Source: a virus. Taken from it: a stretch of DNA of 33,876 bases. Every line of letters starts with the position of its first letter. Within the stretch, counting starts at the first letter, position 1. Below, in pieces: positions 1-33,876 of this stretch. Made by a program: the position numbers and the translations under genes. Under the pieces are notes generated by a model. It worked only from the letters and a program-made list of their open reading frames with translations, was not told the DNA's origin and made no database searches. Location: IMG/VR virus record IMGVR_UViG_3300025112_000081; one strand, 5' to 3'.

Positions 1-29
1 ATGCCTTCTTTTTCTATTAGCGCGTCTGC
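1..29. repeat. Terminal direct repeat (circular-assembly overlap), copy 1; identical to 33848..33876
   Basis: 29/29 nt identical (atgccttctttttctattagcgcgtctgc) at both ends of the window; a minus-strand ORF stays in frame across the join. Confidence 0.9.
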
Positions 30-827
30 CATTCGCTCGGCTTTAGCTATTGAAGTTTTATCGTTAGTTACGGATGTTGATTTCCCGATTTCAGTGGTTA
101 GCCCATTGGCTGCAATCATCTCATTGCTAGACCGTAAAAGACCAAGAACGAAATCAGCATCATTCATCCCATCAAGTGACTTAATGAATGAGCCTAGTTT
201 CTCAGCCTTCACAGGCAATGCACCGAATTCAGCTTTTGCGATGGCGACACATTCAGAGAGCCGCTTTTCGTCTTCGGCTTTCTTGATCTTGGCTTCAAGC
301 TCTTCGGCTTTTGTGATTGCTGATTTGTTAGATTTCCAAAGTTGCTCGACCATCGAGCGCATATTCTTAGGCAAGGCAGCAAGGCGCTTTTGCATTTCCT
401 CTTCATCCTCTTCTTCATCCTCTTGCTTTTCTGCCTCTTCCTCTTCATCAGCTTCGGGGGTCTCACCTTCGGGGGCGGCTTCCTCTGCTACTTCGGGCTT
501 CTCTTCTTCTTCTTCTTCTTCTTGCTTGGAAAAGCCACCGAGGGCCATAAGGTCTTTTAGAAGATTCGCTGGAACCTCTTCTTGAAAAGCGCTTAGGATT
601 TGAACAGCGCTCTTGATTCCTTCAACCGCTTGCTCGCTCAGTTCTGCCTTCTTTAGCCGCTCAATGATGGCCTCACCCTTTTCAAAGGGGGCCGCCAGAA
701 TTGCTTCAATCACATCCATTTCTTTTTTCTCCGATTTTTTGATTGCAAAAGTGCGCTTGTTCGCGCCTTTATCAACGAGACTAACCTCAACGGTTTCAAG
801 TTCTCGCAGTTCAGTTTTTTTCGACAT
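1..827 (-). CDS. Scaffolding protein, N-terminal 275 codons (gene is cut by the linearisation point and continues at 33847..33766)
   Basis: Hand translation from ATG 827..825 is open to position 1: MSKKTELRELETVEVSLVDKGANKRTFAIKK... with an acidic tract (QEEEEEEKPEVAEEAAPEGETPEADEEEEAEKQEDEEEDEEE). It is missing from the ORF track because there is no stop inside the window. It lies between the protease and the decoration/capsid genes. The plus-strand ORF 1..585 is its antisense shadow. Confidence 0.75.
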   Translation of the reverse strand, partial: MSKKTELRELETVEVSLVDKGANKRTFAIKKSEKKEMDVIEAILAAPFEKGEAIIERLKKAELSEQAVEGIKSAVQILSAFQEEVPANLLKDLMALGGFSKQEEEEEEEKPEVAEEAAPEGETPEADEEEEAEKQEDEEEDEEEMQKRLAALPKNMRSMVEQLWKSNKSAITKAEELEAKIKKAEDEKRLSECVAIAKAEFGALPVKAEKLGSFIKSLDGMNDADFVLGLLRSSNEMIAANGLTTEIGKSTSVTNDKTSIAKAERMADALIEKEG

Positions 828-1827
828 TCTCAGCCTCTATGAATTCCACTTGGGGAGCATCACTAGCAGCTAGCTCGCTCCTCTTGCCAAAGCCGCCGAT
901 TGAATACGCATTCAACTCGCCGCTTTTGACTGCCGCCCATTCTTCTTTTCCTAGTCGCGTGCCAAGAATCCAGGTTCCCGAATGCACAACATCAGAGCCG
1001 AAGGCGGCTTTGTTCGCTTTGTGGGGCTTGCCAGCCATCGCGGCCTTGTAATCTTCCTTGGATGGGTAAGGCACAAGCCATGACTCAACCGGGACCGCGT
1101 TTGCCATTTCCGAATGCTGTAGACCCACGATACGGCTTTTCGCCATCCAACCATGAGCGGTTTTTTCCACTTCGGCAGGAGGTATCAAATCCCCGTGGGC
1201 GTCTACTTTATAAGGATCAAGCACCACACCATAAACGATGCGCTTCTCATCATCGGCTTTTGCAATCTCAACCGTGAGTGCCCCATTGGACTCGGGGCGC
1301 TTATCCGCATCTTGACATTGTAAAGGGGGTTTAGTCAATAAGTTCCTAATGGCCTTAGCCTTCCGCGCTACCTCGCCACTGTCGCCGAGCTTTCTAATCG
1401 CTGTCGGATGGGGCATTGATACCGTTGCGCGGTCACCTAAACCCGCTTTAGCTCCCTTGCCTAAAGCAACTAGGGTTGTATTCCCTACTGACTGAGGCAG
1501 CTCATCAAGGGTGAACACGCCCACATCACTCCTAGAGAGGTCCAGAGCTTTAAGATAAACATCGTTAAACGTAACACCATCGGCACCGACCAAGAGTTTC
1601 CCTCTTGCGGCCTCTAGCTCGTTAGACTCAGAAACAACGAAAACAACTTCTAGCCCGTCGATGCTCTTCGCTTTGGATTGTTCAGGGGCCTTCTTTACTA
1701 GCCCCCCTTTTCCTCCTGCGTAACCTCTAGCGGCTTGGTGAATCATGGCCCAAGCCCACCCAGGGAGTTGCTGTTTTGCAAGCGTTAGCGCTTGCTCCAA
1801 ATAATCACGGCTTTTCTCTTTAGACAT
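811..1827 (-). CDS. Prohead protease, XkdF-like C-terminal domain, with an N-terminal degenerate uracil-DNA-glycosylase-like domain
   Basis: RIVYGVVLDPYKVDAHGDLIPPAEVEKTAHGWM resembles the B. subtilis XkdF core as I remember it (LVYGIVYEPD..D.HGD....EIEKAAHGFM). Sits between portal and scaffold. The N-terminal half resembles family-4 UDG (see findings). Confidence 0.6.
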   Translation of the reverse strand: MSKEKSRDYLEQALTLAKQQLPGWAWAMIHQAARGYAGGKGGLVKKAPEQSKAKSIDGLEVVFVVSESNELEAARGKLLVGADGVTFNDVYLKALDLSRSDVGVFTLDELPQSVGNTTLVALGKGAKAGLGDRATVSMPHPTAIRKLGDSGEVARKAKAIRNLLTKPPLQCQDADKRPESNGALTVEIAKADDEKRIVYGVVLDPYKVDAHGDLIPPAEVEKTAHGWMAKSRIVGLQHSEMANAVPVESWLVPYPSKEDYKAAMAGKPHKANKAAFGSDVVHSGTWILGTRLGKEEWAAVKSGELNAYSIGGFGKRSELAASDAPQVEFIEAENVEKN

Positions 1828-3187
1828 TTTGAGCCTCTCCCTCTTCTTCTAGCGGCAACTCTGCCTCGTCTTGAAATTCTTCTGATTCTCTACCAGTTGA
1901 AACGTCGGGCATGGGCATATTCCCAAAATCCCGAACCCATTTCTCAAGCTCATCGTCCGGTGTAAGAACCCCAGCTGAAGAAAGAGTGCCAATAGCCCCC
2001 GCCAATTCATTCAAATCAGGGGTTTCGATATCCTCGAAAGCTAGCCTTGGGAAATATTCAGGGGGTACGCCGTTGTATTTAAGCAGCTTAGGTATTGCGA
2101 ATTGGGTGAACACTTCAGAGATTTGTTGCAAATAACTGCCAATTGCTTGGCTGAAAAGGTGCGTTTTATTACTACTAAGGGAAAAGCTCCCAACGCTATC
2201 CATCCCCAGAAGAACAAACTCCCCGAGAACGCTCATGGCGATTCTTGATTCGTAGCGTTTGACAATCTCGTTCACGTCAATAGGGCGCCTTCCGCCGCTT
2301 GCTAGAAGTGAGAACTTGAAGCCGCTCGGGTTCCCGTCAACATCAGTCTCAGCGGGGAATACTACGCCCTCGAATTCGTTTCGTTTAACCTTTCGGACCA
2401 TTTCAAAGATATTGGCTAGAGATGCTTTTTGTGCAGAGCTAGCGCTTGGACTTAACATCTCAAGAGGGACGTGAGCGACTGGCAAGCCTGCTAAATCACG
2501 CTCGATCCCGATGGCCTCGATCTCCTGAATTCGCTTAAGGTAGAACCACGAGCGATAAGCATTTCTAAGAATGCTCCGGCCTTCGGGGTTTGCCTTGTGC
2601 GTTTCGGTTCTGAATAATAGCGCTTTCTCAATCGGAATATATCTCAGTCGATAATCTGGCGGGGGTTGTTGCCACATGCCAGCCGGGGAGCCGTCCTCGT
2701 CCAGCTCCCACTTGCAAAGGGTTTCCTGAGCCCGGATTGAAATCTTCCTCCAACCGATTTTACCGTCGTTATGCTTAGAGCGCTCTGAGCCATCTTTTGC
2801 GTCGGGTCCGCGTCTATACTTGTAGACACATTCAAAATAAGCCCAGCCAAATGTCAACATCGACAAGATTTCAGAAAGCAGGTCATGCCATGAGTGGGCC
2901 ATGTCTTGACGACATTCCTCCACAAAATCAGCCGCCGCTTTATGTTCTGGGGTATCGCCGCTAGGTTCTATTCTCCACTCAGTTTGTCTAACAAGGGTCT
3001 TGATTGCATAAAGGATTGCACCGACAACCGGGTCGTTGTCGCGCATCTCCTGGAATGCCTTGATTGACTTCTCACCTTTGAGTTGTCTTAACCATTCCTC
3101 GTCAACCTTGCCCCCGTATTCCTTTAAGCCCGGTTTCCCAAGCGTGTCTAAAATTCCGAATTCTTCTAGCTCTTCATTCTCTGGCAT
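1820..3187 (-). CDS. Portal protein
   Basis: 455 aa, acidic C-terminus, located in the terminase/MuF/protease block; overlaps the protease start by 8 nt. Confidence 0.7.
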   Translation of the reverse strand: MPENEELEEFGILDTLGKPGLKEYGGKVDEEWLRQLKGEKSIKAFQEMRDNDPVVGAILYAIKTLVRQTEWRIEPSGDTPEHKAAADFVEECRQDMAHSWHDLLSEILSMLTFGWAYFECVYKYRRGPDAKDGSERSKHNDGKIGWRKISIRAQETLCKWELDEDGSPAGMWQQPPPDYRLRYIPIEKALLFRTETHKANPEGRSILRNAYRSWFYLKRIQEIEAIGIERDLAGLPVAHVPLEMLSPSASSAQKASLANIFEMVRKVKRNEFEGVVFPAETDVDGNPSGFKFSLLASGGRRPIDVNEIVKRYESRIAMSVLGEFVLLGMDSVGSFSLSSNKTHLFSQAIGSYLQQISEVFTQFAIPKLLKYNGVPPEYFPRLAFEDIETPDLNELAGAIGTLSSAGVLTPDDELEKWVRDFGNMPMPDVSTGRESEEFQDEAELPLEEEGEAQNV

Positions 3188-3199: not shown

Positions 3200-4033
3200 T
3201 TAAGTTTCCCCATTGGGGCCGCGTCTAGTTGCTACAACTCGACATCTGCAGTTTGCTATTTGATGTATTGGGCCAATTTTAGGGGAGGACATCGGGGTTC
3301 CATCGGGGAGAATAAACTTAGCATCAATCGGGACGGTGACGCCGTTCATTTTCCAGTGTTTCCGGTTTCCTGATTTCTTATCATCTATGACCGCAACCCA
3401 TTTTTTCCATCTGATTCCCGCTGATTTCATACCCTCAACCCGACCTTGTGCCCTGGCATTCCCTATCTCTGTTCGAGCTATTAACTCAGCTCTCCCGTGA
3501 ACAGTCCGCACCAAGCCCACACCGCCGGGAATTTCTTCTAGCCTTTCCCTTCCCTCTTGCTCTGGTTTAATGAAAAAATTCGTTCTGATTCTTCTGGCAA
3601 CTTCGCCCATGCTCGGGGTTGGCTTTTCTCCGAGCCATTTAGACATCGCTCCCGATAACGACCTTTTAAACTCCCAAGAGATGCTCCGAGTTATCCCAGT
3701 GACAAGAATCTCTTTCTCGCGAATATAAGCCTCAACTCTTCTTTGCGGAATTCTAAAGGCCTTATTCTCTTCCTTGCCTGCGTCCTCCATTTGCCTTAGG
3801 CCGTGACGCTGCAGAATTGCTAGGAGCTGTCTTTGCTTATCAGTCAAAACTGCTTTGGTGATTCGATTCCTGACGCCCTTACCTCTTAAATCAGAGACTG
3901 CCTCTCTGATAAGCTCATCCCCGTAGGATGCCAACCAGCTAGAAATATCATTGGTAGCGGCCTTGGCTCTAGCGTCTTCTTTGCCTAAGAGTCTTCTCTC
4001 TCTTCTGCTTACTCGTCTTTTTCGTTGGGGCAT
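3200..4033 (-). CDS. Minor head protein, Mu F / SPP1 gp7-like
   Basis: C-terminal WKKWVAVIDDKKSGNRKHWKMNGVTVPIDAKF...PIHQIANCRCRVV fits the Phage_Mu_F signature (W...D.r....H..m.G.......pP.H.nCRC); TAATG junction with terL. Confidence 0.65.
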   Translation of the reverse strand: MPQRKRRVSRRERRLLGKEDARAKAATNDISSWLASYGDELIREAVSDLRGKGVRNRITKAVLTDKQRQLLAILQRHGLRQMEDAGKEENKAFRIPQRRVEAYIREKEILVTGITRSISWEFKRSLSGAMSKWLGEKPTPSMGEVARRIRTNFFIKPEQEGRERLEEIPGGVGLVRTVHGRAELIARTEIGNARAQGRVEGMKSAGIRWKKWVAVIDDKKSGNRKHWKMNGVTVPIDAKFILPDGTPMSSPKIGPIHQIANCRCRVVATRRGPNGET

Positions 4034-5376
4034 TAAAAGAACACCTGAGGGGAATAGTTCTCACCTGGGTTTATAGTTATCTCCCGGCATGACTTTGAAT
4101 CAAGTTCAGAGATTGCCCAAACCAAAGCATCCATACGGTCGGGTGAATCTGAATTGCTACCGGGGAGAAAATTACACATTTGATCTTCAAGGTCACTAAA
4201 TACCCCAACATGATGAACCCGGCCTTGCTCATATCTTGCGGCGACCGGTTCCGACCTTGAAAATTTCCCGCGAGATGCATGAACGTTCTTGGTCGCGGCT
4301 TGGGGATTTATTCCGTTGATAATTGTTCGCCAAGTATCGCCGCCCTGATTTGCTTCAAAAACGATACGGTCTGCCATGTGCTCCTGGTAAGCCATTATTG
4401 CTTTCCGACACACCGCATCAGGAGAGCCCCTAAAAGAATAATCGGCAAGGACATAAAAATCCTTTGCAGCTCTTCCGACGACGACAACCCCGCTCTCATC
4501 GCTTGTTGCCTTGCTCGTGGTTGCCGGGTCCACTGCAACCACTATCCTATCAAGAGGAGGGTGGTCCTTAACTCTTGCAGCCTCTATTAAATTTCTCGTG
4601 AATAGAGCGCCGGGGATTTCATCCAGAAGCTCACCTTCTAGCTCTTGTCTTCCTAAGTGCGTGTCACCGTATCGGTCAAAAATAGTTTGGATAAATACCG
4701 GGGATAAATTGCTCTTATTTTCCATCGTCGAACCGGTGGTCGTGATGGTGGACTCTAGCTCGGCGAGGTCCCTAAGGAACCTCCTCGGCCTCGGTGTCGT
4801 TGTTACAATCACGCGGGGATGAATCCCAAGCCGGAGTCCGAAAAGGAGCATATCCCAGGCCTCGGTATATCTCCAAGAAGCGAGTTCATCACACCATGCA
4901 AAATCACATTGAGGCCCCCGGAGCTGGTCAGGTTGTTCACTTGAAAAGGTCGTAGCCGTTGCCCCGTTGGGCCAAGTCAACCGGCGCTTAGATGGTTCAT
5001 ATTCGGGGCGGAAGTCTGGAGGGGATACGGACAAGATTCCGCTCTCGCCCTCAACCATGACATCCCGAACATCAGAAGCCGCACGGGCCACAAGATGCAC
5101 CCTCTTGGCTACTCCAGAACGCACCGCATCAATCACGCTCTCTGCACCTGTTCTAGTCTTGCCCCATCCTCGTCCAGTTTGAATCAACCAGCAATTCCAA
5201 TCCCCCACCGGCAGAATTTGTTCAGGTCTTGCCTTAAAGCACCATTCATTTTCAAGCGCTTCTAGCTCATCGGGGGCCATCTCATTAACTATCTTCATCC
5301 TCTGCAATTCGTTTAGCCTGCACAGCCAGCTTGTCCAAGACTCGTTCTCTCGCATCCTTGACTTCAACTCTTGCAT
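4033..5376 (-). CDS. terL: Terminase large subunit
   Basis: P-loop GRGWGKTRTGAE (as in GTA/Terminase_6-type TerL GGRGAGKTRAGAEW), then a nuclease half (VAVDPA...DESGVVVVG). GGAGG lies 9 nt upstream of ATG 5376. In-frame alternative starts at 5298 and 5280. Confidence 0.85.
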   Translation of the reverse strand: MQELKSRMRENESWTSWLCRLNELQRMKIVNEMAPDELEALENEWCFKARPEQILPVGDWNCWLIQTGRGWGKTRTGAESVIDAVRSGVAKRVHLVARAASDVRDVMVEGESGILSVSPPDFRPEYEPSKRRLTWPNGATATTFSSEQPDQLRGPQCDFAWCDELASWRYTEAWDMLLFGLRLGIHPRVIVTTTPRPRRFLRDLAELESTITTTGSTMENKSNLSPVFIQTIFDRYGDTHLGRQELEGELLDEIPGALFTRNLIEAARVKDHPPLDRIVVAVDPATTSKATSDESGVVVVGRAAKDFYVLADYSFRGSPDAVCRKAIMAYQEHMADRIVFEANQGGDTWRTIINGINPQAATKNVHASRGKFSRSEPVAARYEQGRVHHVGVFSDLEDQMCNFLPGSNSDSPDRMDALVWAISELDSKSCREITINPGENYSPQVFF

Positions 5377-5740
5377 CTATGGTTGCCTCCACCTCTGCTT
5401 TAACCTTTGGGATAAACATGGCCCGACGCCGCTCTAGCTTCCATGCCGCCGCTTGCCACTGGCCACCCTGGGCCGCTTTCTCGATTATTGCCAACCACCT
5501 TTGAGTTGCTAAGCCTTCAGCTTCTTTTATGCGCTCCCGGAATTTCTGATAGACTGCCGCGTCCTTGCGGTCTGAATCAGCCCATTCCATCCATTTGTAG
5601 AAGGTCGTTTCCCCTATACCAGCACACCCACAAGCGTCTTTTTTGGGGCACCCTAGCTTGATTGCCTGGACAAAAGCGTCCTCGATTTCTTTGTTTAGCT
5701 TAACCTTTCGGCCTACTCTTTTCTTCGGACTCTTAGCCAT
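5285..5740 (-). CDS. terS: Terminase small subunit (HTH)
   Basis: 151 aa, basic N-terminus, HTH-like GCAGIGETTFYKWM, immediately upstream of and overlapping terL. Confidence 0.6.
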   Translation of the reverse strand: MAKSPKKRVGRKVKLNKEIEDAFVQAIKLGCPKKDACGCAGIGETTFYKWMEWADSDRKDAAVYQKFRERIKEAEGLATQRWLAIIEKAAQGGQWQAAAWKLERRRAMFIPKVKAEVEATIDARVEVKDARERVLDKLAVQAKRIAEDEDS

Positions 5741-6938
5741 TCACCAGCTCGGCAGTCTTCCCCGTGAAGTCTTCCCAACGCTTGATCACCACATCGCAAT
5801 AGACCGGATCGATCTCCATCCCGTAACAGTCTCGATCCAGTTGCTCACACGCGATCAGGGTGGAGCCGCTACCCATGAACAGATCCGCAACCAACTGACC
5901 CGCGCCACTGCTATGGCTGATCGCATGGGCGGGAACATGAACGGGCTTTTGTGTTGGGTGTAAATCGTTCTTTGGATTAGGGGCCAAACCCCAAACGCTC
6001 AAGGCGTGACCTTCGGGCGGAAAATTAAAGGTGTGTTTCCCTCGGGTGGCATAACAGATCATTTCGGCGCACCATGTCCAATGCCTCTTAGTCAAGGAGG
6101 GCATCGGGTTAGGTTTCGACCAAACGCACCAACTAAAATGATCGGCCCATTGGTCCATCCACTCCCAAATGCTCCCCGCCAGATGGTGAGAGGTGCAAAC
6201 ATAAACAGAACAGTTTTCAGCCATAGCCAAGGCGAACGACTCCTCGACGCTTTGAAAACTAAAGTCCCGATCCCACTCACTCCTCATTAGCGCGGCGTGT
6301 GTCTCCCTCACCGAAGCGGCGACCCCCTTGTTTTTCTCCGCTATGTTATAAGGCGGATCAGTGAATACCAGATCGGCCCGTTGCCCGTTCATGAGCGCAG
6401 CCACATCCTCGGCCTTGGTCGCATCTCCGCACATAAGCCGGTGATCTCCCATCGCCCAGATCTGGCCAGGCTGGACCGTTGGATCCTCGGGTGCTTCGGG
6501 TACTTCGTCGGGGTCCGTTTGCCCCTCATTGATCCCGGTCGTGTCATCGACAAGCGCCGCAAGTTCATCAGAGCTAAACCCGGTCGAAGTCAAAAGCGCC
6601 TCATCTTCGATTTGAAGAGCCGAGAGAATTTCAGCAAGTGCGCCATCATCCCACTCGGCGAGGTCAGCCGTGCGGTTGTCTGCTATTGCATAGGCCGTCG
6701 CATCTGAACCCTCAAGCTCTGTTCTAACGACGTTGAGTGTTCTCCAGCCCAAAGCTTTGGCCGCTGCAAGTGTACCATTGCCAGCAACCACGATACCCTC
6801 TGAATTAATGACAATCGGCTTTTGCTGGCCAAACTTGGCAAGGCTCCCTTTGATAGCATCGAGGTTCTTATTGTCGTGCGTTCTTACGTTCGCCGGGTCA
6901 AAGATTAGTTTATCAATGTGTACAGATTCGATTTGCAT
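5733..6938 (-). CDS. ParB-like nuclease domain fused to a beta-class N6-adenine (or N4-cytosine) DNA methyltransferase
   Basis: N-terminal ParB/Srx-like domain (IDKLIFDPANVRTH...GNGTLAAAKALGW). Motif IV VFTDPPYN lies upstream of motif I FMGSGSTLIACEQLDRDCYGMEID, which is the beta-class order. Confidence 0.8.
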   Translation of the reverse strand: MQIESVHIDKLIFDPANVRTHDNKNLDAIKGSLAKFGQQKPIVINSEGIVVAGNGTLAAAKALGWRTLNVVRTELEGSDATAYAIADNRTADLAEWDDGALAEILSALQIEDEALLTSTGFSSDELAALVDDTTGINEGQTDPDEVPEAPEDPTVQPGQIWAMGDHRLMCGDATKAEDVAALMNGQRADLVFTDPPYNIAEKNKGVAASVRETHAALMRSEWDRDFSFQSVEESFALAMAENCSVYVCTSHHLAGSIWEWMDQWADHFSWCVWSKPNPMPSLTKRHWTWCAEMICYATRGKHTFNFPPEGHALSVWGLAPNPKNDLHPTQKPVHVPAHAISHSSGAGQLVADLFMGSGSTLIACEQLDRDCYGMEIDPVYCDVVIKRWEDFTGKTAELVNG

Positions 6939-8312: not shown

Positions 8313-10067
8313 ATGGGCCATGCGACGGGGCCAAGGTCGGGGAATTCAGAAAGAAAAATAAGAAACAACCTTCGGGGGCTCAACCACATCCCTGAAGATG
8401 ATTGGGTTGAACACGAGCTACTCGACGACCCAGGATTCAATTGTCCCCCGCAATGGGGGCAGCTTGAGAAGGAAACCGGGCCAGCTCACCCAGTCCCAGC
8501 GCTTGGGGATTGGAGCAAAGATGGTGCTCTTCTTATTCAACTCAAAGCATTCTTCTCCGAATATATCAACGAGACCGATAATAGCGGCAATCCTTGCCGG
8601 ATGGTCAAACACAACGATGAGGTTGACTTGTGGGGGGTTATCAAAGCCGGGTGGAAAAGACAGAACGGGGCTGAGCCAGTCATCACCGAGGGGCAGATGT
8701 GGCTCTACCAGAGGAATATTGGAATCTGGGCAAAAGCAGACACACCGGAGAGGCTTTATTTGTTCAGGCTCCTGCATGGCTTAAGCGCTGGCGATGGCTA
8801 CCAAGATTTTGATGGCAAAACGATTATGATGAACAAGAGAAATCTCTTGGCCCTCGATTTCATGGCGATGCATGACCACGCAATTATCCATAAGAAAAGC
8901 CCTTTTGCTGATGAAGTCCCTGGAGTTGTGCTTCTTACAAATTTACAGCCTGAGAGAAACCCGGCTTATTCAGTCAAGCAAACCCTTATTCACATGCCCG
9001 ACAAGGATGGCCACGTCCATTACATGGCTCCCGGTTTTGAAGAATTCAAACGCCACACGTATAACGAGCCGACGCCACGCCCCAAGCTCTCGGAAGTTGT
9101 TAATCTTAGATCTGAAAAAAACAACCCGGCGGCCTGGCACCATTACATGAAATCACTCTTTGCGGGGGATGAAGATGCAAAGGCAAAGGTGCAAACGATT
9201 GAAGAGCACTTGGGTGCCTCCCTATGCGGGCTTGCTACTAAATTTCAGCGCGTGGTGGTTCTAGAAGGCTCAGGGGCCAACGGGAAATCGCTCTTCATGG
9301 AAATAGCCCGCCGCCTATTTAATGCTGAAGATGTGACCGTGACGAGTCCCGACACTTGGGGCCGTTTTGGAACAGTTGACCTTATGGGGAAGAAAATCAA
9401 TCTAGTCACTGAGCTAGATGAGGGTTCAGTCTTTAAAAGTGATACCTTCAAAAGTGCAGTTACTGGGGATTTAATACGCGGGGAGTACAAGGGAGGGGCA
9501 AGTTTCTCGTTCAGGCCGGTGGCCGGGCATATTCTATCATGCAACTCTTTACCACCAGCAGCGGACCAGTCCCCCGGATTTTATCGGAGATTCATCTTGG
9601 TAAAGTTTGGGCGGCGATGGAGCCACTCAGACCCCGGATATCGAGAAGCGGACCAAATCCTAGATTCTATTATGGAAGTAAGGCACGAGATAGTTCAGCG
9701 CCTTGTTTGGTCTTGTGCTGAGTTGATGAAGCGGGGGCAATATCCGAACCTTTCAAGTCACAATTCAGCAATGAAAGACTGGGCTCAGAATTCTGATTCA
9801 GTGACTGACTTTGCGAATTCATGCCTTAAGAAAGATGATGAAGGAGACTTTATTAAGGGAATCGAAAAGCAACCAGACTTACATGGGGCCTTTCTGGTGT
9901 TTACCAAGAACACCGGGAGGAAGGGCATGGGGAATCGAAATTTCTACAGAAGGCTTGCAGCGATTGAAGGGGTAGACAAAAGAGAAAAGCACTACAACGG
10001 GAGTGCCTGTTTTAATGTCAAGCTAAACTATCAGGCGGACTGGTTAGAGGGCTCAAAGGATATATAA
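8313..10067 (+). CDS. DNA primase/helicase, D5 / P4-family SF3 NTPase
   Basis: Walker A VVVLEGSGANGKSLFMEI preceded by a D5_N-like segment (WHHYMKSLFAGDEDAKAKVQTIEEHLGASL). GGGAGGG lies 7 nt upstream of the ATG. The N-terminal ~270 aa are unassigned. Confidence 0.75.
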   Translation: MGHATGPRSGNSERKIRNNLRGLNHIPEDDWVEHELLDDPGFNCPPQWGQLEKETGPAHPVPALGDWSKDGALLIQLKAFFSEYINETDNSGNPCRMVKHNDEVDLWGVIKAGWKRQNGAEPVITEGQMWLYQRNIGIWAKADTPERLYLFRLLHGLSAGDGYQDFDGKTIMMNKRNLLALDFMAMHDHAIIHKKSPFADEVPGVVLLTNLQPERNPAYSVKQTLIHMPDKDGHVHYMAPGFEEFKRHTYNEPTPRPKLSEVVNLRSEKNNPAAWHHYMKSLFAGDEDAKAKVQTIEEHLGASLCGLATKFQRVVVLEGSGANGKSLFMEIARRLFNAEDVTVTSPDTWGRFGTVDLMGKKINLVTELDEGSVFKSDTFKSAVTGDLIRGEYKGGASFSFRPVAGHILSCNSLPPAADQSPGFYRRFILVKFGRRWSHSDPGYREADQILDSIMEVRHEIVQRLVWSCAELMKRGQYPNLSSHNSAMKDWAQNSDSVTDFANSCLKKDDEGDFIKGIEKQPDLHGAFLVFTKNTGRKGMGNRNFYRRLAAIEGVDKREKHYNGSACFNVKLNYQADWLEGSKDI

Positions 10068-10075
10068 CCAAGGGA

Positions 10076-10112
10076 GGCAGCGGGGCCGTGATTAGCAGCC
10101 CCGCTGCCGTTT
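10076..10112 (+). terminator. Hairpin, probable terminator after the primase-helicase gene
   Basis: GGCAGCGGGGC (10076..10086), 11-nt loop, GCCCCGCTGCC (10098..10108), then GTTT; the U tract is short. Confidence 0.45.
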
Positions 10113-10117
10113 CAGCA

Positions 10118-10133
10118 ACTCAACCAAAAGAAG
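10118..10133 (+). promoter_or_regulatory. Start-associated leader motif ACTCAACC-AAAAGAAG
   Basis: Ends immediately before GTG 10134. Confidence 0.5.
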
Positions 10134-10724
10134 GTGAAACAGGCATTAGCCGGAGGCACAATGACTAAGAAAAGACAGAGCATAGAATTTGATCGCGGTC
10201 AAGAAACCGAACAAATAGCACGATTCAGAAACGCATTGAGATTTGCAGGGCACGCACTCAACTGCGATGAAGGCTCCTATTGTCGGTGCGGTTTCGGGGA
10301 GTTAGAGAAGGCGCTAGCTCGAGCACAACGAGAAAACAAACCACCGACCGAGGATGCTTTTTATTTGTTTCGAGAATGCGCCGCAGAGATAACAGGGCAC
10401 AGAGGGGAATCATGTGCTGACAGGCGGTGTAAGTGCGGCGCAAAAAAAGCACTGAGAAAGCTAAACATCAAGAGCCCTGACGCAGACCAATTCGTTTCGT
10501 ACTGGTGCTCTCGGTGTTCAAGGGAGCACCATCAAGAGGACCTTGAATCATTCTGGAAAGAAAAAGACGCTTTAAACGTCCCTTTGGATTCAACCATTGA
10601 AGCGCTAAAAGAATCAAATAGAGAAAAGTGTAGGATGGGCAACTGCCCCACTAAAAACTGTGCTGGGCCTGTTAGACGGTCAATTTTATCATTAAAAAGA
10701 ATGATTCCGGATGTCCCATTTTAG
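10134..10724 (+). CDS. Cys-rich hypothetical protein (196 aa)
   Basis: GTG start supported by the leader motif. Internal duplication C-x4/5-C-x-C-G (CDEGSYCRCGFGELEKAL / CADRRCKCGAKKALRKL), plus CSRC and CPTKNC. Confidence 0.55.
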   Translation: MKQALAGGTMTKKRQSIEFDRGQETEQIARFRNALRFAGHALNCDEGSYCRCGFGELEKALARAQRENKPPTEDAFYLFRECAAEITGHRGESCADRRCKCGAKKALRKLNIKSPDADQFVSYWCSRCSREHHQEDLESFWKEKDALNVPLDSTIEALKESNREKCRMGNCPTKNCAGPVRRSILSLKRMIPDVPF

Positions 10725-10756
10725 GAATATTGTCAGGGATGAATAATAATAAACAA

Positions 10757-10770
10757 ACTCAACCAAAGGA
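10757..10770 (+). promoter_or_regulatory. Start-associated leader motif ACTCAACCAAAGGA
   Basis: 8 nt upstream of ATG 10779. Confidence 0.55.
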
Positions 10771-10778
10771 TTAAAACC

Positions 10779-11933
10779 ATGAAATCATTATTTATCAGGT
10801 GCTCTTCTCTCAAAGGGGTTCTTAGCTGCCCCTCTTACGGGCTAACGGATAAACCCTGGAACCCCGAAAGCGTATATAGCCAACAAGGTTCGGCCGGACA
10901 CCTGGGGGCTCAGTATTACATTGATCCTCTTCTCGGCATGGCGGGAGAGGTCCCTGATTTCCCAGAGGTCCAACTCAAGTACCCGCTAATTGATATTAAG
11001 GACCTCGAAATCTGCTTCTGGCTTTTTAAACGAATGTGGGACGAACACCTTGCGCCATTTATGGGGGAAAACATTAGTTGTGAGGTTAAGATGAAGGCTC
11101 GTCTTGGTGTTGTTGAAATAGACGGAGAAGAGACTGAGGTTTTTCTAACTGGCCACGCTGACATTATAGCCCAAACGGCCATGGATTTAATCGTCTATGA
11201 TTGGAAGTTTGGAAGAGCCCTTGGCGCTTCTCACTTTTCACAAACTGCAGGTTATGCAGCTCTAGCGGTGACTGTGTACGGGTGGCCAGAGTCCGGAGTG
11301 GTAACCGCTGGTGAGGCCTACCCCCGCTTTGGGAAATGGAAAGACCACACTCAGAAAATCGATAAGGTTTATCTGGGACAGTTCAAAGAAACGGTTCTTG
11401 AGACTTTAAAGCATAGGGGCAAAGTAAGAAACCCATCACCCGACGGTTGCAAGTTTTGCTCAGCCCGGCTTGACTGCCCAGAATACCCGCGAATGTTTCA
11501 GGATAGTTTTATCGCTGTGAAGGGGATGGTAGACGGAGATTCTAGCGTTGTTGACCCTGAAGAACTGGCTCATCTTCATTCAGCGTTTAAAACCCTCGAA
11601 TATGCTTGCAGCTCTTTCAAAAAGCTATTTGCAACAACCCTCGAAACAGCCAACGCTGTAGGGAAAGACAACGCAATAGAAGGTTTTTATCTTCAAGAGA
11701 AAACTAGGCGAAGTGTAGAGCCCCAAGCGGCATGGCCTCACCTTGCTAAAGTTCTTAATCAGGATGAAATTGCATCAGTTCTTTCTATGCCGCTAGCCAA
11801 GGTGAAAAGCGCGGTTATGAGCAAGACACCAGAAGGAATGAAGAAAAAAGAATTTTGGGCAGAGTTTGAGAAAGCCCTCTATGAATCAACCGCTATCATC
11901 GAAAGCTCTTCTTTGACCGTAGCAAAAAAATAA
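10779..11933 (+). CDS. Cas4-like / RecB-family PD-(D/E)XK exonuclease with Fe-S cluster cysteines
   Basis: GHADII...LIVYDWKFG (D...D-x-K), SQTAGY (QxxxY), an N-terminal Cys (RCSSLKGVLSC) plus C-terminal CKFCSARLDC (C-x2-C-x5-C); adjacent to recT. Confidence 0.75.
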   Translation: MKSLFIRCSSLKGVLSCPSYGLTDKPWNPESVYSQQGSAGHLGAQYYIDPLLGMAGEVPDFPEVQLKYPLIDIKDLEICFWLFKRMWDEHLAPFMGENISCEVKMKARLGVVEIDGEETEVFLTGHADIIAQTAMDLIVYDWKFGRALGASHFSQTAGYAALAVTVYGWPESGVVTAGEAYPRFGKWKDHTQKIDKVYLGQFKETVLETLKHRGKVRNPSPDGCKFCSARLDCPEYPRMFQDSFIAVKGMVDGDSSVVDPEELAHLHSAFKTLEYACSSFKKLFATTLETANAVGKDNAIEGFYLQEKTRRSVEPQAAWPHLAKVLNQDEIASVLSMPLAKVKSAVMSKTPEGMKKKEFWAEFEKALYESTAIIESSSLTVAKK

Positions 11934-11978
11934 GAAAACTTTACACGCTCTGGGGTTGTATATACTTTGGAGTCACTA

Positions 11979-11992
11979 ACTCAACCAAAGGA
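11979..11992 (+). promoter_or_regulatory. Start-associated leader motif ACTCAACCAAAGGA
   Basis: 6 nt upstream of ATG 11999; TTGTATATAC element 14 nt further upstream. Confidence 0.55.
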
Positions 11993-11998
11993 TTTGAA

Positions 11999-12364
11999 AT
12001 GATTAAAACCACAGAAGACATTCTAGGTGGCGGTATCGCCACAAAAACAACTATCAGCACAGGGTATTTCACCCCAGGCGGTGGAAGGTACCACCTCATC
12101 TGGGGGCACGTTCCAGACATTAACGACCCGGACGGGCCTCTTAAGTTCATCGGTACATGGATGAACAGAGGCGGCGGCGGTGTCACAGTTATGCACCAAA
12201 TTGGGACATTCTGTCATTGGACTTACGTTGATGAAAAAATGGGCATTGGAGAAGAGAACGCAAAGGCAATCGCCCACTTTATCAACTCAGTAAACTTTTT
12301 TGACTACAAGCCAGAGAACTACCTGGCCGATTTGCCACGAGGCGTCAAAGGGGCTCTGTCATGA
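11999..12364 (+). CDS. Hypothetical protein (121 aa)
   Basis: ORF with leader motif; Gly-rich; no recognisable domain. Confidence 0.55.
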   Translation: MIKTTEDILGGGIATKTTISTGYFTPGGGRYHLIWGHVPDINDPDGPLKFIGTWMNRGGGGVTVMHQIGTFCHWTYVDEKMGIGEENAKAIAHFINSVNFFDYKPENYLADLPRGVKGALS

Positions 12365-12525
12365 GATTAAAAACGGGGGATAGCGTTACAATTGACCACC
12401 AGGTTTTTGGCGCAAAGGTGATAGCTCAAAGCAAAGACGGAAAAAGAATCAAGGTAAAATACCACTGCCCTCGAGAGGGGCAGATTGTTAAATGTGTACA
12501 ACTCAACCAAATTACAAAGGATTAA
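12361..12525 (+). CDS. Small hypothetical protein (54 aa), not in the ORF track
   Basis: ATGA overlap with the upstream gene. MRLKTGDSVTIDHQVFGAKVIAQSKDGKRIKVKYHCPREGQIVKCVQLNQITKD fills the gap to recT. Its 3' end carries the recT leader motif. Confidence 0.45.
   Translation: MRLKTGDSVTIDHQVFGAKVIAQSKDGKRIKVKYHCPREGQIVKCVQLNQITKD
12501..12521 (+). promoter_or_regulatory. Start-associated leader motif, split variant ACTCAACC-AAATTAC-AAAGGA
   Basis: 7 nt upstream of ATG 12529. Confidence 0.5.
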
Positions 12526-12528
12526 AAA

Positions 12529-13431
12529 ATGGGTAATTTATCAGAAGCTCAGATGGCGATAGTAACGCTAATGGATAGAAAGTTTGAGGTGCTAAAAAAA
12601 GCACTTCCGGCGAACGTCAACCCGACACGATTTAAACAAGCCGCAATCATGGCCGCAACGGAAAACCCTAAAATCGTTTTAGAATGCACGCCCGTCTCAG
12701 TATTCACAGCCATCTTGCAAGCGGCCCAGCTTGGTTACAATCTCGGCTCTGCTTATAACGAGGCATATTTAATCCCATATAGGGACAAGCGCCGAGGCGT
12801 TACAGAGTGCAAACTAACTCCCGGCTATGTTGGAATGAGGCGAGCCCTAATTCGTTCCGGAGCTGCTGATGTAGTTCACGCGTCTATCGTGCATCAAAAC
12901 GACATTTGCACAATCTCTCACCACCCACCAAGCGTTAAACATGAGATTGACTTAAAAGGGGATAGGGGGGAATGGCTGGGGGTTCTTGCCTGTGCTTATC
13001 GCCTTAATGACGGGGTTCACCAGCTCATTGACTTTGAGTATTTGAGCGAAGAAAGAATCCTCGCAGCTAAGGCCCAGGCGAGGGATAAATCGCTATGGAA
13101 CAAGCACCCCGAACAATTCTGGAAAAAGACCGGAGTGCGGGCATTGGTTAAACTCTTTCCCCTGGTCAACGATGAACTCGTCACAATGGTTTCGTGGGAC
13201 AATGAGAGCAACATCCCTTTGGAAGAGCAAGCCCCCACAATCCACCAGGACACCGCTACAGCGGTCGCGGCTGTAAAGGAGCTACCACAAGCGGAAGTTC
13301 TACCACCGCCACCAGAGAGCCCACAGGCAGCTGAGGCGAAGAAAAAGACCAAGCCGCGCAAAAAGCGCACAACTAAGAAACAAAAAGAAGACAACGGGCT
13401 TAATGTGCCTGTGCCTTTCGGGTTTGCGTGA
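12529..13431 (+). CDS. recT: RecT-family single-strand annealing recombinase
   Basis: SVFTAILQAAQLGYNLGSAYNEAYLIPYRDKRRGVTECKLTPGYVGM matches the RecT core pattern; basic K/R tail; next to the exonuclease. Confidence 0.8.
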   Translation: MGNLSEAQMAIVTLMDRKFEVLKKALPANVNPTRFKQAAIMAATENPKIVLECTPVSVFTAILQAAQLGYNLGSAYNEAYLIPYRDKRRGVTECKLTPGYVGMRRALIRSGAADVVHASIVHQNDICTISHHPPSVKHEIDLKGDRGEWLGVLACAYRLNDGVHQLIDFEYLSEERILAAKAQARDKSLWNKHPEQFWKKTGVRALVKLFPLVNDELVTMVSWDNESNIPLEEQAPTIHQDTATAVAAVKELPQAEVLPPPPESPQAAEAKKKTKPRKKRTTKKQKEDNGLNVPVPFGFA

Positions 13432-13661
13432 TGAGAAGCAAAGAACAAGACTCTAACTCGAGACTAGCTAAAGCCATCAAGACCTATCTCCGGTGGGTTA
13501 ATAGGACGGTAGCTCTTGAATACCTTGGGGGAGAATATCACCCGCTCGGTGAGGGGGAAAGGGTGTTTAGAGTGGACACAATGAGAGACCTGGCAAGCAG
13601 TATAGGAAAAGAGGCTCGAAATGTTGCGGAAGAAAACCACATAGAGGGGGGAGCAAAATGA
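13431..13661 (+). CDS. Hypothetical protein (76 aa)
   Basis: TGATG junction with recT (GTG 13428 is an alternative start). Confidence 0.5.
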   Translation: MRSKEQDSNSRLAKAIKTYLRWVNRTVALEYLGGEYHPLGEGERVFRVDTMRDLASSIGKEARNVAEENHIEGGAK

Positions 13662-13855
13662 AGACAGAGAAAGAAATTCTAAAAGAAGGAAACGCGGATT
13701 CTTGGAACCGTGACGTTTTGCAATTCTTGCTTGCAGAAACAGAAGAGCGCCAGGCAAGAGAACGGGCAGAGGAAACAGCAACTAGGAAGTTTTACCGGTG
13801 GGTGCTTTCTACGCTCTTACTCACTGGATTAGTTTGGGTGGGGTTGGTGCTATGA
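13658..13855 (+). CDS. Small membrane protein (65 aa, C-terminal TM)
   Basis: ATGA overlaps at both ends; hydrophobic FYRWVLSTLLLTGLVWVGLVL. Confidence 0.5.
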   Translation: MKTEKEILKEGNADSWNRDVLQFLLAETEERQARERAEETATRKFYRWVLSTLLLTGLVWVGLVL

Positions 13856-14010
13856 AAAACCAATATTTAAGAAGAAAGCAAAAGCAATCTTTCAGAATAC
13901 CTTTTGAGCGATTCGGTCCAACTGAATGGATTGGTTTGGCTCTTGCTTCTTCGCTCTTGTTGTCTTGTTCTACGATATTTCTTTTTGAAGTTTTGGGGGG
14001 GTTATCATGA
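13852..14010 (+). CDS. Small membrane protein (52 aa)
   Basis: Track ORF 13798..14010 trimmed to the ATGA-coupled ATG 13852; TM WIGLALASSLLLSCSTIFLFEVL. Confidence 0.45.
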   Translation: MKNQYLRRKQKQSFRIPFERFGPTEWIGLALASSLLLSCSTIFLFEVLGGLS

Positions 14011-14279
14011 AAAATTTACCAGAGAGAGGCGGCTCTTTATCTTATGGCCTATTTGACGAGAGGCCCCCAATCGGTCGGTGGCTTATGATGGGTATAGTCT
14101 TCGGCGCGGTCGGCTTAGTCTGTTACGGTGGATACCATCACGGAGTAAAGCTTGAGCAGGCAGCATTGGGGAGCCCAAAGCCAGAGGCTCGTGCCACTAA
14201 GAAGCAGGAGAAGAAAGCCAGCCAGATAACAGAAGGCAATCGTGAATGGCTCACAAGCATAGCAAAAGGGGGTGAGTGA
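14007..14279 (+). CDS. Membrane protein (90 aa, one TM)
   Basis: ATGA coupling; TM WLMMGIVFGAVGLVCYGGY. Confidence 0.5.
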   Translation: MKNLPERGGSLSYGLFDERPPIGRWLMMGIVFGAVGLVCYGGYHHGVKLEQAALGSPKPEARATKKQEKKASQITEGNREWLTSIAKGGE

Positions 14280-14548
14280 TGGGATTCTGGGGAAAGAAGA
14301 AAACAAGAAAGAATTTAGTCAAGCATGACATTCAACAAACTCATGATGTTCTTGATTACATCAACCACACAGCATTAAAAACGGCTGGGATGGGTGCAGA
14401 GTACAAGAAGCGGTTAATAATGGAGGGGGATGAGAATGACAAAGTAAGCATGGACATTTGCGACGCTGTGACTATTCAACTCAAAGGGGCGTATGAGACT
14501 ATGTTCGAGCTGGTAAAAGAAAAGCAAAGCCAGCCGGAGATAAAATAA
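14279..14548 (+). CDS. Hypothetical protein (89 aa)
   Basis: TGATG junction (GTG 14276 is an alternative start). Confidence 0.5.
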   Translation: MGFWGKKKTRKNLVKHDIQQTHDVLDYINHTALKTAGMGAEYKKRLIMEGDENDKVSMDICDAVTIQLKGAYETMFELVKEKQSQPEIK

Positions 14549-14563
14549 CAAAAGGGAGGGGAT

Positions 14564-14737
14564 ATGAATTTATTGCTAGAGAGTTTTCATTCACTGAGTC
14601 CAGGAGGGATTGCAATTTTAATTAGCTCTTCTGTGATTTTTGCTTCAGTTAGTATCAGGGCTTCCGGGATGTGGAGGGCAAATAGGCGGCTAAAAAAAGC
14701 CATCAACGCGATAAACATCGGGTTGCCTTATGGATGA
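14564..14737 (+). CDS. Small membrane protein (57 aa), not in the ORF track
   Basis: GGGAGGGG lies 4 nt upstream of the ATG; MNLLLESFHSLSPGGIAILISSSVIFASVSIRASGMWRANRRLKKAINAINIGLPYG; overlaps the next gene by 8 nt. Confidence 0.5.
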   Translation: MNLLLESFHSLSPGGIAILISSSVIFASVSIRASGMWRANRRLKKAINAINIGLPYG

Positions 14738-15185
14738 GCAGACCCCCGAAGAGAAGCGGAAGGAGAGCACCAAGCGTGCGATCCTCCGCTTCTATAAAGG
14801 GCAAGAGCCCAAGAAAAGAAACAAGCGCCTAGACGTTCCTTATGAATGGCAAGAGGCACGGGACTTCGTTCAATGGATGCGGTCCATGAACATCCTGCAT
14901 ACGCATATTCCGAACGAGGGTAAGCGCAGCGGTCAACGCGGTAAAGCAATGGTTGAGGGCGGCTTAAGCAAAGGGTTTCCGGATTTCATTATCCTTGGCC
15001 CCCGCCCCCCGTGTGGCGCTCCAGGGATAGCCATCGAATTGAAGCGGACGAAATACTATTCTCACCCACGTGAGCAAAAAGCTTGGCTTGCAAAGCTGCG
15101 CCAATACGGCTGGAAAGCTGATTTTGCCCACGGAGCTGATGAAGCCATCGAGCTGGTGTCGAAATGGCTTAATCTACCAAAATAG
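14730..15185 (+). CDS. VRR-NUC domain nuclease
   Basis: HIPNEGKRSGQRGKAMVEGGLSKGFPDFIILG...IAIELKRTKYYSHPREQKAWLAKLRQYGW fits the VRR-NUC pattern (G.PD...iE.K....s..Q..w...l...G). Confidence 0.75.
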   Translation: MDEQTPEEKRKESTKRAILRFYKGQEPKKRNKRLDVPYEWQEARDFVQWMRSMNILHTHIPNEGKRSGQRGKAMVEGGLSKGFPDFIILGPRPPCGAPGIAIELKRTKYYSHPREQKAWLAKLRQYGWKADFAHGADEAIELVSKWLNLPK

Positions 15186-15253
15186 ATCGAGCAAAGTACA
15201 TTTATTTTTTCTTATGATTTCAAGGGCTTAGATGCAAGACGTGAGTCCCCCCT

Positions 15254-15295
15254 GCTTTATTGTATATACATCTACTGAGCTTTATTGTATATACA
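15254..15295. repeat. Two perfect 17-nt direct repeats GCTTTATTGTATATACA, each containing the palindrome GTATATAC
   Basis: Copies at 15254..15270 and 15279..15295, 25 nt centre to centre. The 10-mer TTGTATATAC also occurs at 11956..11965. Confidence 0.85.
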
Positions 15296-15324
15296 AGGGG
15301 TGCCCCGCGATGGGGCGCACGAAA

Positions 15325-15338
15325 ACTCAACTAAAGGA
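15325..15338 (+). promoter_or_regulatory. Start-associated leader motif ACTCAACTAAAGGA
   Basis: 7 nt upstream of ATG 15346. Confidence 0.5.
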
Positions 15339-15345
15339 TTTTAAA

Positions 15346-15681
15346 ATGACATTTTCAGCAACAATTATAAAAGCAGTCAGCACTCTTGGAGGTGATCTCC
15401 AGACCGTCTTAGAAAGCATGGTTTCGTCGGCCGATATTAACGCTATTGACACAAACGGCGACTATGAGGAAATCTTCACGGGTACATGGAACGGAATCGA
15501 CACGGCCGATCATGTCGAAGATATCGACGAAGACAAGCGGGAGGCCATGGCGGATCTAGCCCGTGCTTGGATGGACGCTTGGCCAGATGCATCTAAGCTT
15601 TCAGAAATCGAATCGGTAGCCGCCAAGCTCGCAGCGCAGGCGGCTGAGATTGAATTATTAAAAGCGCAATTAAACAATTAA
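15346..15681 (+). CDS. Acidic hypothetical protein (111 aa)
   Basis: Track ORF 15232..15681 trimmed to ATG 15346, because the upstream part overlaps the repeats and the leader motif. By my count, about 22 D/E versus 7 K/R. Confidence 0.55.
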   Translation: MTFSATIIKAVSTLGGDLQTVLESMVSSADINAIDTNGDYEEIFTGTWNGIDTADHVEDIDEDKREAMADLARAWMDAWPDASKLSEIESVAAKLAAQAAEIELLKAQLNN

Positions 15682-15682
15682 A

Positions 15683-15700
15683 AATCAACCAAAATTAGGA
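15683..15700 (+). promoter_or_regulatory. Start-associated leader motif variant AATCAACC-AAAATT-AGGA
   Basis: 9 nt upstream of ATG 15710. Confidence 0.4.
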
Positions 15701-15709
15701 GCAACTAAA

Positions 15710-33765: not shown

Positions 33766-33876
33766 TTATCGTCCTTTCTCTTGCTGATATTCGGCATAGA
33801 GGCTTGGGTTATTTTTCCAGACATTCGCCAAAGCTTTTGCTTTTGTGATGCCTTCTTTTTCTATTAGCGCGTCTGC
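33766..33876 (-). CDS. Scaffolding protein, C-terminal part (continuation of 827..1 across the circular join)
   Basis: ...ADALIEKEGITKAKALANVWKNNPSLYAEYQQEKGR-TAA (stop at 33768..33766). 827 + 82 unique nt = 909 nt = 302 aa plus stop. Confidence 0.75.
   Translation of the reverse strand, partial: ADALIEKEGITKAKALANVWKNNPSLYAEYQQEKGR
33848..33876. repeat. Terminal direct repeat (circular-assembly overlap), copy 2
   Basis: Identical to 1..29. Confidence 0.9.

Follow-up and report, generated by a model that had tools for sequence, protein, structure and literature searches.

The viral record IMGVR_UViG_3300025112_000081 of IMG/VR (33,876 nt; below, "the window" means this whole stretch of DNA) contains on its minus strand, at 811..1827, a gene for a protein of 338 amino acids (aa) in which a trimmed fold of the uracil-DNA glycosylase (UDG) superfamily is joined to a phage prohead protease. 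By sequence comparison, the product (P0001) is a head-maturation protease of the XkdF/assemblin-like type with predicted activity. Fusions of a UDG-like domain and a prohead protease are common in uncultured phages and apparently undescribed. We estimate at roughly 55% the probability that the UDG-like module is a non-excising, nucleic-acid-binding or adaptor module, which would be taken into the procapsid by the protease.

Domain architecture of the fusion protein

According to the list of open reading frames (ORFs) and the translation, the gene starts with the ATG at 1827, which is preceded by the Shine-Dalgarno sequence GAGGGAGAGG, and ends with the TGA at 811-813. In line with the original prediction, which was made from the letters of the DNA alone, 811-1827 is a real ORF encoding the UDG-like and XkdF parts in one chain. 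It lies on the minus strand, and the peptides quoted as UDG-like were located at aa 59-106, 118-131 and 137-148. The AlphaFold2 (AF2) model of the protein has a mean predicted local distance difference test score (pLDDT) of 85.6. It starts with a helical hairpin (aa 3-36; 1720..1821) with the modelled helices H3-20 and H23-36 and the consensus ...YLE.AL..A...LP.W..A.IH..A. The trimmed UDG-fold domain, a "short form" assigned by fold and profile matches, follows at aa 55-168 (1324..1665), with a pLDDT of 91-98 across aa 61-160. A linker predicted to be disordered (aa 169-186; 1270..1323), with pLDDT <50 for aa 170-181, connects it to the XkdF/assemblin-like serine protease domain (aa 187-338; 814..1269). 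All these coordinates are on the minus strand.

The assignment of the C-terminal half to the XkdF proteases, already made in the original prediction, was confirmed by Pfam family PF14550, which matches aa 187-317 with E 2.5e-22 and 79.7 bits (gathering cutoff 24; profile positions 4-125 of 126). The head maturation protease profile phrog_3017 also matches this half (E 8.6e-25). At the level of structure, the modelled protease domain (aa 190-324) superposes on T4 gp21 (5JBL) with Z 6.9 over 104 aa and on the varicella-zoster virus protease with Z 4.7; these matches to the assemblin/gp21-type fold are modest yet domain-specific. Further, 55 viral models in BFVD match at E<=0.001, and many among the matches listed are XkdF or prohead proteases. 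In the protease domain, D209, H238, H269, S283, G284, W286, W297 and S309 are invariant in 46-70 relatives.

The N-terminal half has a UDG fold

The original prediction had pointed to a Pfam search of aa 1-190. Alone, this segment gave no match in Pfam, PHROG, NCBIfam or the PDB sequences, and the homology to UDGs became visible through the profile of its relatives. Full-length relatives with 35-45% identity to P0001 bear PF03167 together with PF14550, and several relatives are labelled "uracil-DNA glycosylase family 4" by the pipeline of the Joint Genome Institute (JGI). We built a family profile from 148 homologous domains, 115 of which match PF03167 singly (best E 3.4e-23); the residue tallies given below refer to 180 domains. 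Compared with solved UDGs, the profile matches S. tokodaii 4ZBX (E 4.2e-15), T. maritima TM0511 (4e-12), T. thermophilus UDGa (1.9e-10) and UdgX (about 2.5e-10).

The modelled domain (aa 55-167) superposes on the T. maritima UDG 1L9G with Z 11.1 (rmsd 2.3 A, 112 aa, 22% identity), on UdgX with Z 9.1, on the family-5 UDG 2D3Y with Z 8.9 and on the UDG domain of the phiLo polymerase with Z 8.8. Ranks 1-11 of the fold matches are taken by UDG families 1-5, SMUG, MUG and TDG, and in Foldseek the top ~30 are all family-4 UDGs or UdgX with a probability of 1.00. The UDG fold that the original prediction had read from this half was therefore borne out both by profile and by comparison of the model with family-4 and family-5 structures. 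By these criteria the N-terminal half is a UDG-superfamily fold nearest to family 4 and UdgX, and profile and model together show that the domain descended from uracil-DNA glycosylases of the family-4/UdgX type. We also observed that the same model superposes on the Pol III psi protein of E. coli (3SXU_B; Z 7.5, 96/102 aa, 20% identity), a small adaptor protein.

Erosion of the catalytic site

The catalytic pocket of T. thermophilus UDGa (Tth UDGa) comprises E41, G42, E47, F54, N80 and H155, plus N89 in motif 3 (Xia et al., PMC5387724). For the comparison with the domain described here, the residue register was taken from the alignment of the profile to 4ZBX and from column tallies. The remnant of motif A, which replaces G-E-(A/G)-P-G, is V65-S66-E67-S68-N69 (1621..1635, minus strand), corresponding to G40, E41, G42, P43 and G44 of the Tth enzyme in this order. 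F54 is replaced by L79 and N80 by T106, while N89 falls inside a deleted segment. Only the equivalents of E47 (E72) and H155 (H140) survive in the pocket of this copy. The original prediction had named SESNE as the replacement of GE(G/A)PG; the loss of the motif stands, while the register had to be corrected by one residue. In Tth UDGa, the exchanges E41Q, G42D, F54A and N80A each lower k2/Km by ~17- to 900-fold (F54A ~17, E41Q ~900), and N89A lowers it about 7-fold (PMC5387724).

The closest relative, which is 96% identical, has VSEPN as motif A where the protein described here has VSESN, and this position is therefore drifting. Over the family, the pocket residues vary freely; for motif A the consensus reads G-A-S-P-S, and at the position of E41 Glu ranks outside the five commonest residues in both the short form and the long form described below. 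UDGs of families 4 and 5 bear a 4Fe-4S cluster, which in family 4 has four Cys ligands. The original prediction had noticed the absence of the Fe-S cysteines. Since there is no cysteine at all in aa 55-168, the UDG-like domain is unable to hold such a cluster; 162 of the 180 family domains have two cysteines or fewer. The NCBIfam family-4 models TIGR00758 and NF040953 do not match P0001, and the scores of the long-form relatives stay at or below 73 bits where the cutoffs are 125-250. As judged from sequence, the clade is kin to family 4 and UdgX, but is outside the family by curated criteria.

The domains fall into two forms. In the long form (125/180), the segment after strand 2 measures 29-51 aa and motif A reads G-(A/S)-S-P-(S/G); in the short form (54/180, including this copy), the segment measures 15-24 aa and motif A reads V-(S/A)-E-x-(N/S). 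A long-form domain, P0133:846-1006, retains GSSPG, EPFVG, TNVVP and PHPSAVRR. Its model (pLDDT 94.8) superposes on UdgX with Z 18.1 (144 aa, 28% identity) and on TM0511 with Z 17.7. Sequence alignment indicates that, compared with its own long-form relatives, this copy is shorter by about 30 core residues and has kept few of the pocket residues. The relatives form a graded series from long forms with a near-complete pocket (Z 18 to UdgX) to stripped short forms, and the loss or change of function is thus directly testable.

Conservation of the UDG-like domain

For 12 relatives with 63-96% overall identity, we determined the identities part by part. The hairpin is 68-100%, the UDG-like domain 61-96% and the protease domain 70-97% identical, while the two linkers are 28-100% and 28-78% identical, the latter being the linker between the UDG-like and protease domains. 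At the sequence level this shows that the UDG-like domain, whose conservation nearly equals that of the protease, is under purifying selection and is not decaying.

Over the 180 domains, the strongest conservation is found in the motif-B loop and the following helix, not in the pocket. Motif B, the DNA-intercalation loop, is P139-H140-P141-T-A-I-R145-K146 (1390..1413, minus strand) with a near-invariant PHP (P139 180/180, H140 176/180, P141 179/180). Of its basic positions, R145 is found in 134 domains and K or R at position 146 in 157. When compared to the family-4 motif H-P-S-(S/A)-(L/V)-(L/V)-R, the sequence H-P-T-A-I-R-K keeps the His-Pro and the basic residue at position 7, and is otherwise non-canonical. 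The terminal Arg of motif B (R184 in UdgX), conserved in family 4, binds DNA backbone phosphates (PMC10359453). Because this Arg contacts DNA in UdgX and a K or R is present at the equivalent position in 157/180 domains, we suggest that the DNA-binding surface has been kept.

The helix after motif B carries the motif G148-D-S-G-E-V-A-R155-K156 (1360..1386, minus strand), with G148 in 139, D149 in 141, G151 in 155, E152 in 160, R155 in 179 and K156 in 176 of the 180 domains; in alignments A1, A6 and A7, R155 and K156 show no variation. We provisionally call this motif (GDSGEVxRK) clade-specific, as the profile-to-PDB alignments stop before it. The conservation of the domain relative to the linkers, together with the near-invariance of PHP, R155 and K156, argues for a retained function of some kind.

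Distribution and architectures of the relatives

An exhaustive HMMER search with aa 1-190 as query in 1.84 billion cluster representatives (50% identity level) yielded 244 proteins at E<=1e-3, and 132 of them also passed the stricter limit of E<=1e-10. Among the best 150 of the 244, the UDG-like domain is present in 147, and in 138 of these XkdF is found downstream, the intervening distance having a median of 40 aa and reaching 289 aa at most. Most of the nine UDG carriers without XkdF end soon after the UDG domain and were probably cut by contig ends. No member clearly devoid of the protease was detected, and, as far as sequence searches tell, the UDG-like clade appears to be confined to the XkdF protease. 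The hairpin was detected in 90 of the 138 representatives with both domains, and it starts within the first 25 residues in 66. Altogether, 111 full-length homologues of P0001 were collected, and their sources include Tara and JGI metagenomes. Two viral UniProt entries in BFVD (892 and 789 aa) align over 280-288 columns, exceeding the span of either domain.

Many relatives are longer than P0001, and up to about 790 aa can be inserted between their hairpin and UDG domain. Among the 54 longest, the inserts contain 2H/LigT phosphoesterases (14 proteins), an ATP-dependent ligase (10), S-adenosylmethionine (SAM) methyltransferases (about 5), an AAA_33 kinase-like domain (1) and an Acb1-like domain (1). 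The longest architecture is illustrated by P0179 (1551 aa; contig L002, 6001-10656), which carries LigT/2H phosphoesterase, ATP-dependent ligase, UDG-like and XkdF domains on a single chain and, from its domain content, looks like an encapsidated nucleic-acid repair kit. P0179 and a 389-aa long-form relative occupy the same slot, between MuF and the scaffold. The MuF-like gene upstream of P0179 (L002, 4301-5995) harbours the intein-splicing domain PF14890.

Another group of relatives, P0057, P0069, P0071, P0082, P0083 and P0088, has the same hairpin, and instead of the UDG fold two modules, one Cys-rich (CGACRFY...C...C) and one conserved module that reads IQTI.FPK..WTL.RAR.WL..HDF. We considered the possibility that a degenerate UDG is hidden in these proteins and rejected it, since hhalign gave a probability of 0.2% against the UDG-domain alignment A1 and Pfam gives other weak domains. 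The UDG-like module is therefore an alternative accessory and not an obligatory part of such proteases.

The sequence data show that P0001 is the smallest version of a plan common to a large family of proteins from uncultured phages, in which a C-terminal assemblin-like protease is combined with N-terminal UDG-like, 2H phosphoesterase, ATP-dependent ligase, methyltransferase and AAA_33 kinase-like domains. The fusion is not peculiar to this phage; it marks a large clade of uncultured phages. That the fusion is undescribed holds in so far as the open-access literature searched contains no description of a UDG domain on a prohead protease, but the JGI pipeline already labels some members as family 4. 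We used P0001 and the long-form UDG domain in tblastn against 50,697 GenBank phage records; cultured phages were matched by the XkdF part only, and the UDG part matched five unannotated faecal contigs. In a collection with one genome per species (185,579 species), three short contigs of metagenome-assembled genomes were matched.

Proposed function and alternative explanations

Prohead proteases enter the procapsid. In the proposed mechanism, the protease domain would bring the whole polypeptide along, and the disordered linker at aa 169-186 is a plausible self-cleavage site, at which the N-terminal part may be released. The UDG-like module would no longer excise uracil; this loss is proposed because most of the pocket residues are gone, and single substitutions at the lost positions lower k2/Km of Tth UDGa 7- to about 900-fold. 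The preserved surface of the motif-B loop may serve in DNA binding or as an adaptor, and the module could in this way tether the N-terminal fragment to the packaged DNA, perhaps so that both are delivered together. The view of the protein as a cargo carrier is based on the presence of XkdF downstream of the UDG-like domain in 138/147 relatives, on the LigT, ligase and methyltransferase inserts, and on the precedent of the polyvalent proteins (see below).

Several points weigh against this proposal. DNA binding, packaging, cleavage and ejection are predictions, and a cultured relative which could anchor the packaging claim was not found in the GenBank phage records. The AF2 model has a predicted template modelling score of 0.56, which makes the geometry between the domains unreliable. 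With a pI of 6.5, the UDG-like domain of this copy is near neutral, the family median being 8.7. Catalysis by family-4 UDGs depends mainly on the His of motif B, and the fact that this residue hardly varies might just as well reflect a retained chemistry on some substrate. Finally, the most conserved surface, GDSGEVxRK, has no known role in DNA binding; it might mediate protein contacts or be a place of cleavage.

Some of these points lead to a purely protein-level role, in which DNA would have no part and the module would be a spacer, would serve for oligomerisation or docking inside the procapsid, or would regulate the neighbouring protease or be its substrate. Two observations, the clade-specific nature of the best conserved motif and the lack of basic character in this copy, make us take such a role seriously, even if we think it unlikely. 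The best conserved element, the GDSGEVxRK helix, lies outside the profile-to-PDB alignments, the domain is tied almost only to XkdF, the pocket residues are free to vary, and the minimal fold also resembles the protein adaptor Pol III psi. However, the other near-invariant element is the motif-B loop (PHP plus R/K), which is a DNA contact in UDGs, and the sister modules of the larger relatives are all nucleic-acid enzymes. In addition, other protease relatives have unrelated N-terminal domains, so that a UDG fold is not needed for the protease.

Alternatively, the module could be a working DNA glycosylase for uracil or a modified or damaged base, which enters the capsid or acts during packaging and belongs to a kit for repair or counter-defence. 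We consider this improbable for the protein described here. It lacks G40, E41, P43, F54, N80 and the whole N89 segment, the position of the motif-A Pro varies even in the closest relative, Glu is uncommon at the E41 position throughout the family, and the members score far below the NCBIfam family-4 cutoffs. On the other side, the catalytic His is kept in 176/180 domains and the E47 equivalent stays E or D. Long forms such as P0133, with their conserved motifs and Z 18.1 to UdgX, are co-fused with ligase, 2H and kinase-like repair modules, active UDG fusions exist among phage polymerases (PMC13697223), and family-5 UDGs work without a polar motif-A residue (PMC5387724). Residual glycosylase activity is therefore more likely for the long forms than for this copy.

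A decoy or inhibitor, directed against host uracil-repair proteins or against defences sensing uracil-DNA, is very improbable; a decoy against host UDG was one of the roles offered in the original prediction. It follows from the general logic of phage-host conflict only, according to which an inactive enzyme fold could titrate a partner, and no decoy is known to have a UDG fold. The domain is linked to a virion-assembly protease and not to early genes, and Pfam revealed no dUTPase, thymidylate-synthase or base-modification genes among the ten non-structural ORFs scanned, which leaves no sign of a uracil or modified-base DNA metabolism in this set. An artefact, either a Rossmann-like similarity arising by chance or the joining of two genes through a frameshift or assembly error, can practically be dismissed, because although the domain alone has no significant Pfam, NCBIfam or PDB-sequence match, the continuous UDG-XkdF layout recurs in 138 of the best 150 of the 244 clusters from many assemblies, the profile reaches E 4e-15 against solved UDGs, and UDG families fill the top 11 fold matches.

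Beyond the non-excising module proposed for this protein, one may speculate more widely, in a scenario which we regard as tentative and doubtful as a whole, that a broad clade of uncultured and mostly aquatic tailed phages uses the prohead protease to fill its capsids with a kit for nucleic-acid repair or counter-defence. The UDG-fold module would be its near-constant part; in full-size versions it would work beside a ligase, a 2H phosphoesterase, a kinase-like domain and a methyltransferase, and in the phage described here the module would be reduced to a non-catalytic DNA clamp that keeps the released N-terminal fragment on the genome for co-ejection. If true, this would amount to a new class of encapsidated DNA-bound protein and to a new exapted use of the UDG fold.

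Genomic context and the scaffold motif

The XkdF gene is located in the head-morphogenesis block, adjoining the portal and scaffold genes. On the minus strand, the order is headed by the terminase large subunit (4033-5376), followed by a MuF-like protein (3200-4033; PF04233, E 1.2e-5, under the Pfam cutoff), a Mu-type portal (1820..3187; PF06074, E 2.8e-35), the protease, the scaffold, a 132-aa gene and the capsid protein. The start of the protease gene overlaps the portal stop by 8 nt, and its stop overlaps the scaffold start by 17 nt. The order portal-MuF-protease-scaffold was found again in the related contigs L001 and L002. The scaffold gene (minus strand) extends from 1..827 over the circular junction into 33766-33876: the ORF at 3..827 is open at the window edge and is completed by 33766..33876. 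Bases 1-29 and 33848-33876 form a perfect 29-nt terminal direct repeat, and the window is therefore a circular assembly of about 33,847 bp.

The original prediction had noted that the SLVDKGANK motif occurs at the start of the next ORF and not in the protease. The motif is indeed present at scaffold aa 16-24, as part of E14-V-S-L-V-D-K-G-A-N-K-R-T-F-A-I-K-K31 (735..788, minus strand), and scaffold aa 4-36 match phrog_3017 positions 2-33. This location is the norm: in about 50 related IMG/VR loci the SLVD-GAN motif opens the ORF right after the protease, with the consensus L.D...EVSLVD+.AN++F...K, in which S, V, A, N and K are invariant. The protease and motif ORFs are separate in every locus checked and often coupled by an ATGA overlap, and among these loci no natural protein was found that unites the motif and the XkdF domain. 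The protease C-terminus ends in a similar strand, P-x-V-E-F-(I/V)-(D/E), and the scaffold motif could act in trans by docking on the protease.

The end of the protease gene, GAA AAA AAC TGA, contains an A_AAA_AAC heptamer with a run of seven A in the 17-nt overlap (811-827, minus strand). A programmed frameshift or slippage joining protease and scaffold was considered and rejected. The scaffold is in the +1 frame, a -1 slip adds 34 residues and then meets a stop, and neither the frame relation nor the A-run is conserved in 54 related junctions. The heptamer is probably incidental.

Elsewhere in the window, a 401-aa ORF at 5733-6938 (minus strand), upstream of a small-terminase-like gene, shows in its translation a TDPPYN methyltransferase motif behind a ParB-like N-terminus. 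The plus-strand ORFs at 8313-20121 include a DUF5906/D5-like helicase-primase, a PD-(D/E)XK nuclease (DUF2800), RecT, VRR-NUC, a calcineurin-like phosphoesterase and an M15 peptidase. In contig L001, which also encodes the long-form relative P0021, a radical-SAM gene (405-1712) is located just upstream of the terminase/portal block.

Comparison with known systems

Prohead proteases are commonly viewed as self-destructing assembly tools. The architecture described here suggests that the protease is a handle by which cargo acting on nucleic acids is delivered in the virions of abundant uncultured phages. A practical limitation is that the searches revealed no cultured phage whose protease is built in this way. 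The protein resembles the XkdF proteases (PF14550, with XkdF of PBSX as an example, and the T4 gp21/assemblin fold) in the C-terminal 150 aa, in the invariant residues and in the gene slot. In phrog_3017 (402 positions), the SLVD-GAN motif is located at positions 2-33, ahead of the XkdF-domain match, whereas in this phage it is encoded by the separate scaffold gene and the N-terminus of the protease is made up of the hairpin and the UDG fold.

With the family-4 UDGs and UdgX (T. maritima TM0511 1L9G, T. thermophilus UDGa 1UI0, S. tokodaii 4ZBX and M. smegmatis UdgX 6AIL), the UDG-like domain has in common the alpha/beta/alpha fold with a four-stranded parallel sheet and the order of strands and helices, the His-Pro loop of motif B followed by a basic residue, and the acidic residue equivalent to E47. 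In contrast to the family-4 UDGs, it measures about 115 aa instead of about 190, is without a 4Fe-4S cluster, has VSESN as motif A and is devoid of the Phe and of both Asn. It also lacks a stretch of about 25-30 aa behind strand 2 and additionally carries the GDSGEVxRK motif. Moreover, it is fused upstream of a protease, unlike the free-standing family-4 enzymes.

Fusions of UDG domains to phage A-family DNA polymerases are active in SPO1-, SP15-, phiLo- and YerA41-like phages and catalytically dead in N4-like phages (PMC13697223). They likewise have a family-4-like fold that lacks its own gene and is joined to a phage enzyme, and they provide a precedent for the loss of catalytic residues; the phiLo UDG domain superposes on the long-form P0133 domain with Z 13.3. 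After the N4-like polymerases, the protein described here would be the second phage case of a UDG fold under selection despite this loss. However, the partner here is a head protease in the structural operon and not a replicase, so that a role in template scanning or strand displacement is not transferable.

In the phage polyvalent proteins described by Iyer, Burroughs, Anand, de Souza and Aravind in 2017, the assemblin-like peptidase invariably occupies the C-terminus, and packaging into the head was predicted (PMC5512222). These are virion-associated multidomain proteins, and their 2H phosphoesterase and methylase partners are also found in relatives of P0001. The protein described here has such a layout, with hairpin, UDG-like domain and peptidase, as do its relatives of up to 1551 aa with LigT, ligase, methyltransferase or AAA_33 domains. 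In the text of the survey "UDG" is absent, and "uracil" occurs in a reference only (PMC5512222); the polyvalent-protein idea is thus extended to a fold not listed there. When compared to the polyvalent proteins, P0001 is a minimal two-domain version, and packaging is a prediction for both. P0001 combines two known themes, namely polyvalent proteins with an assemblin-like peptidase and eroded UDG folds fused to phage enzymes.

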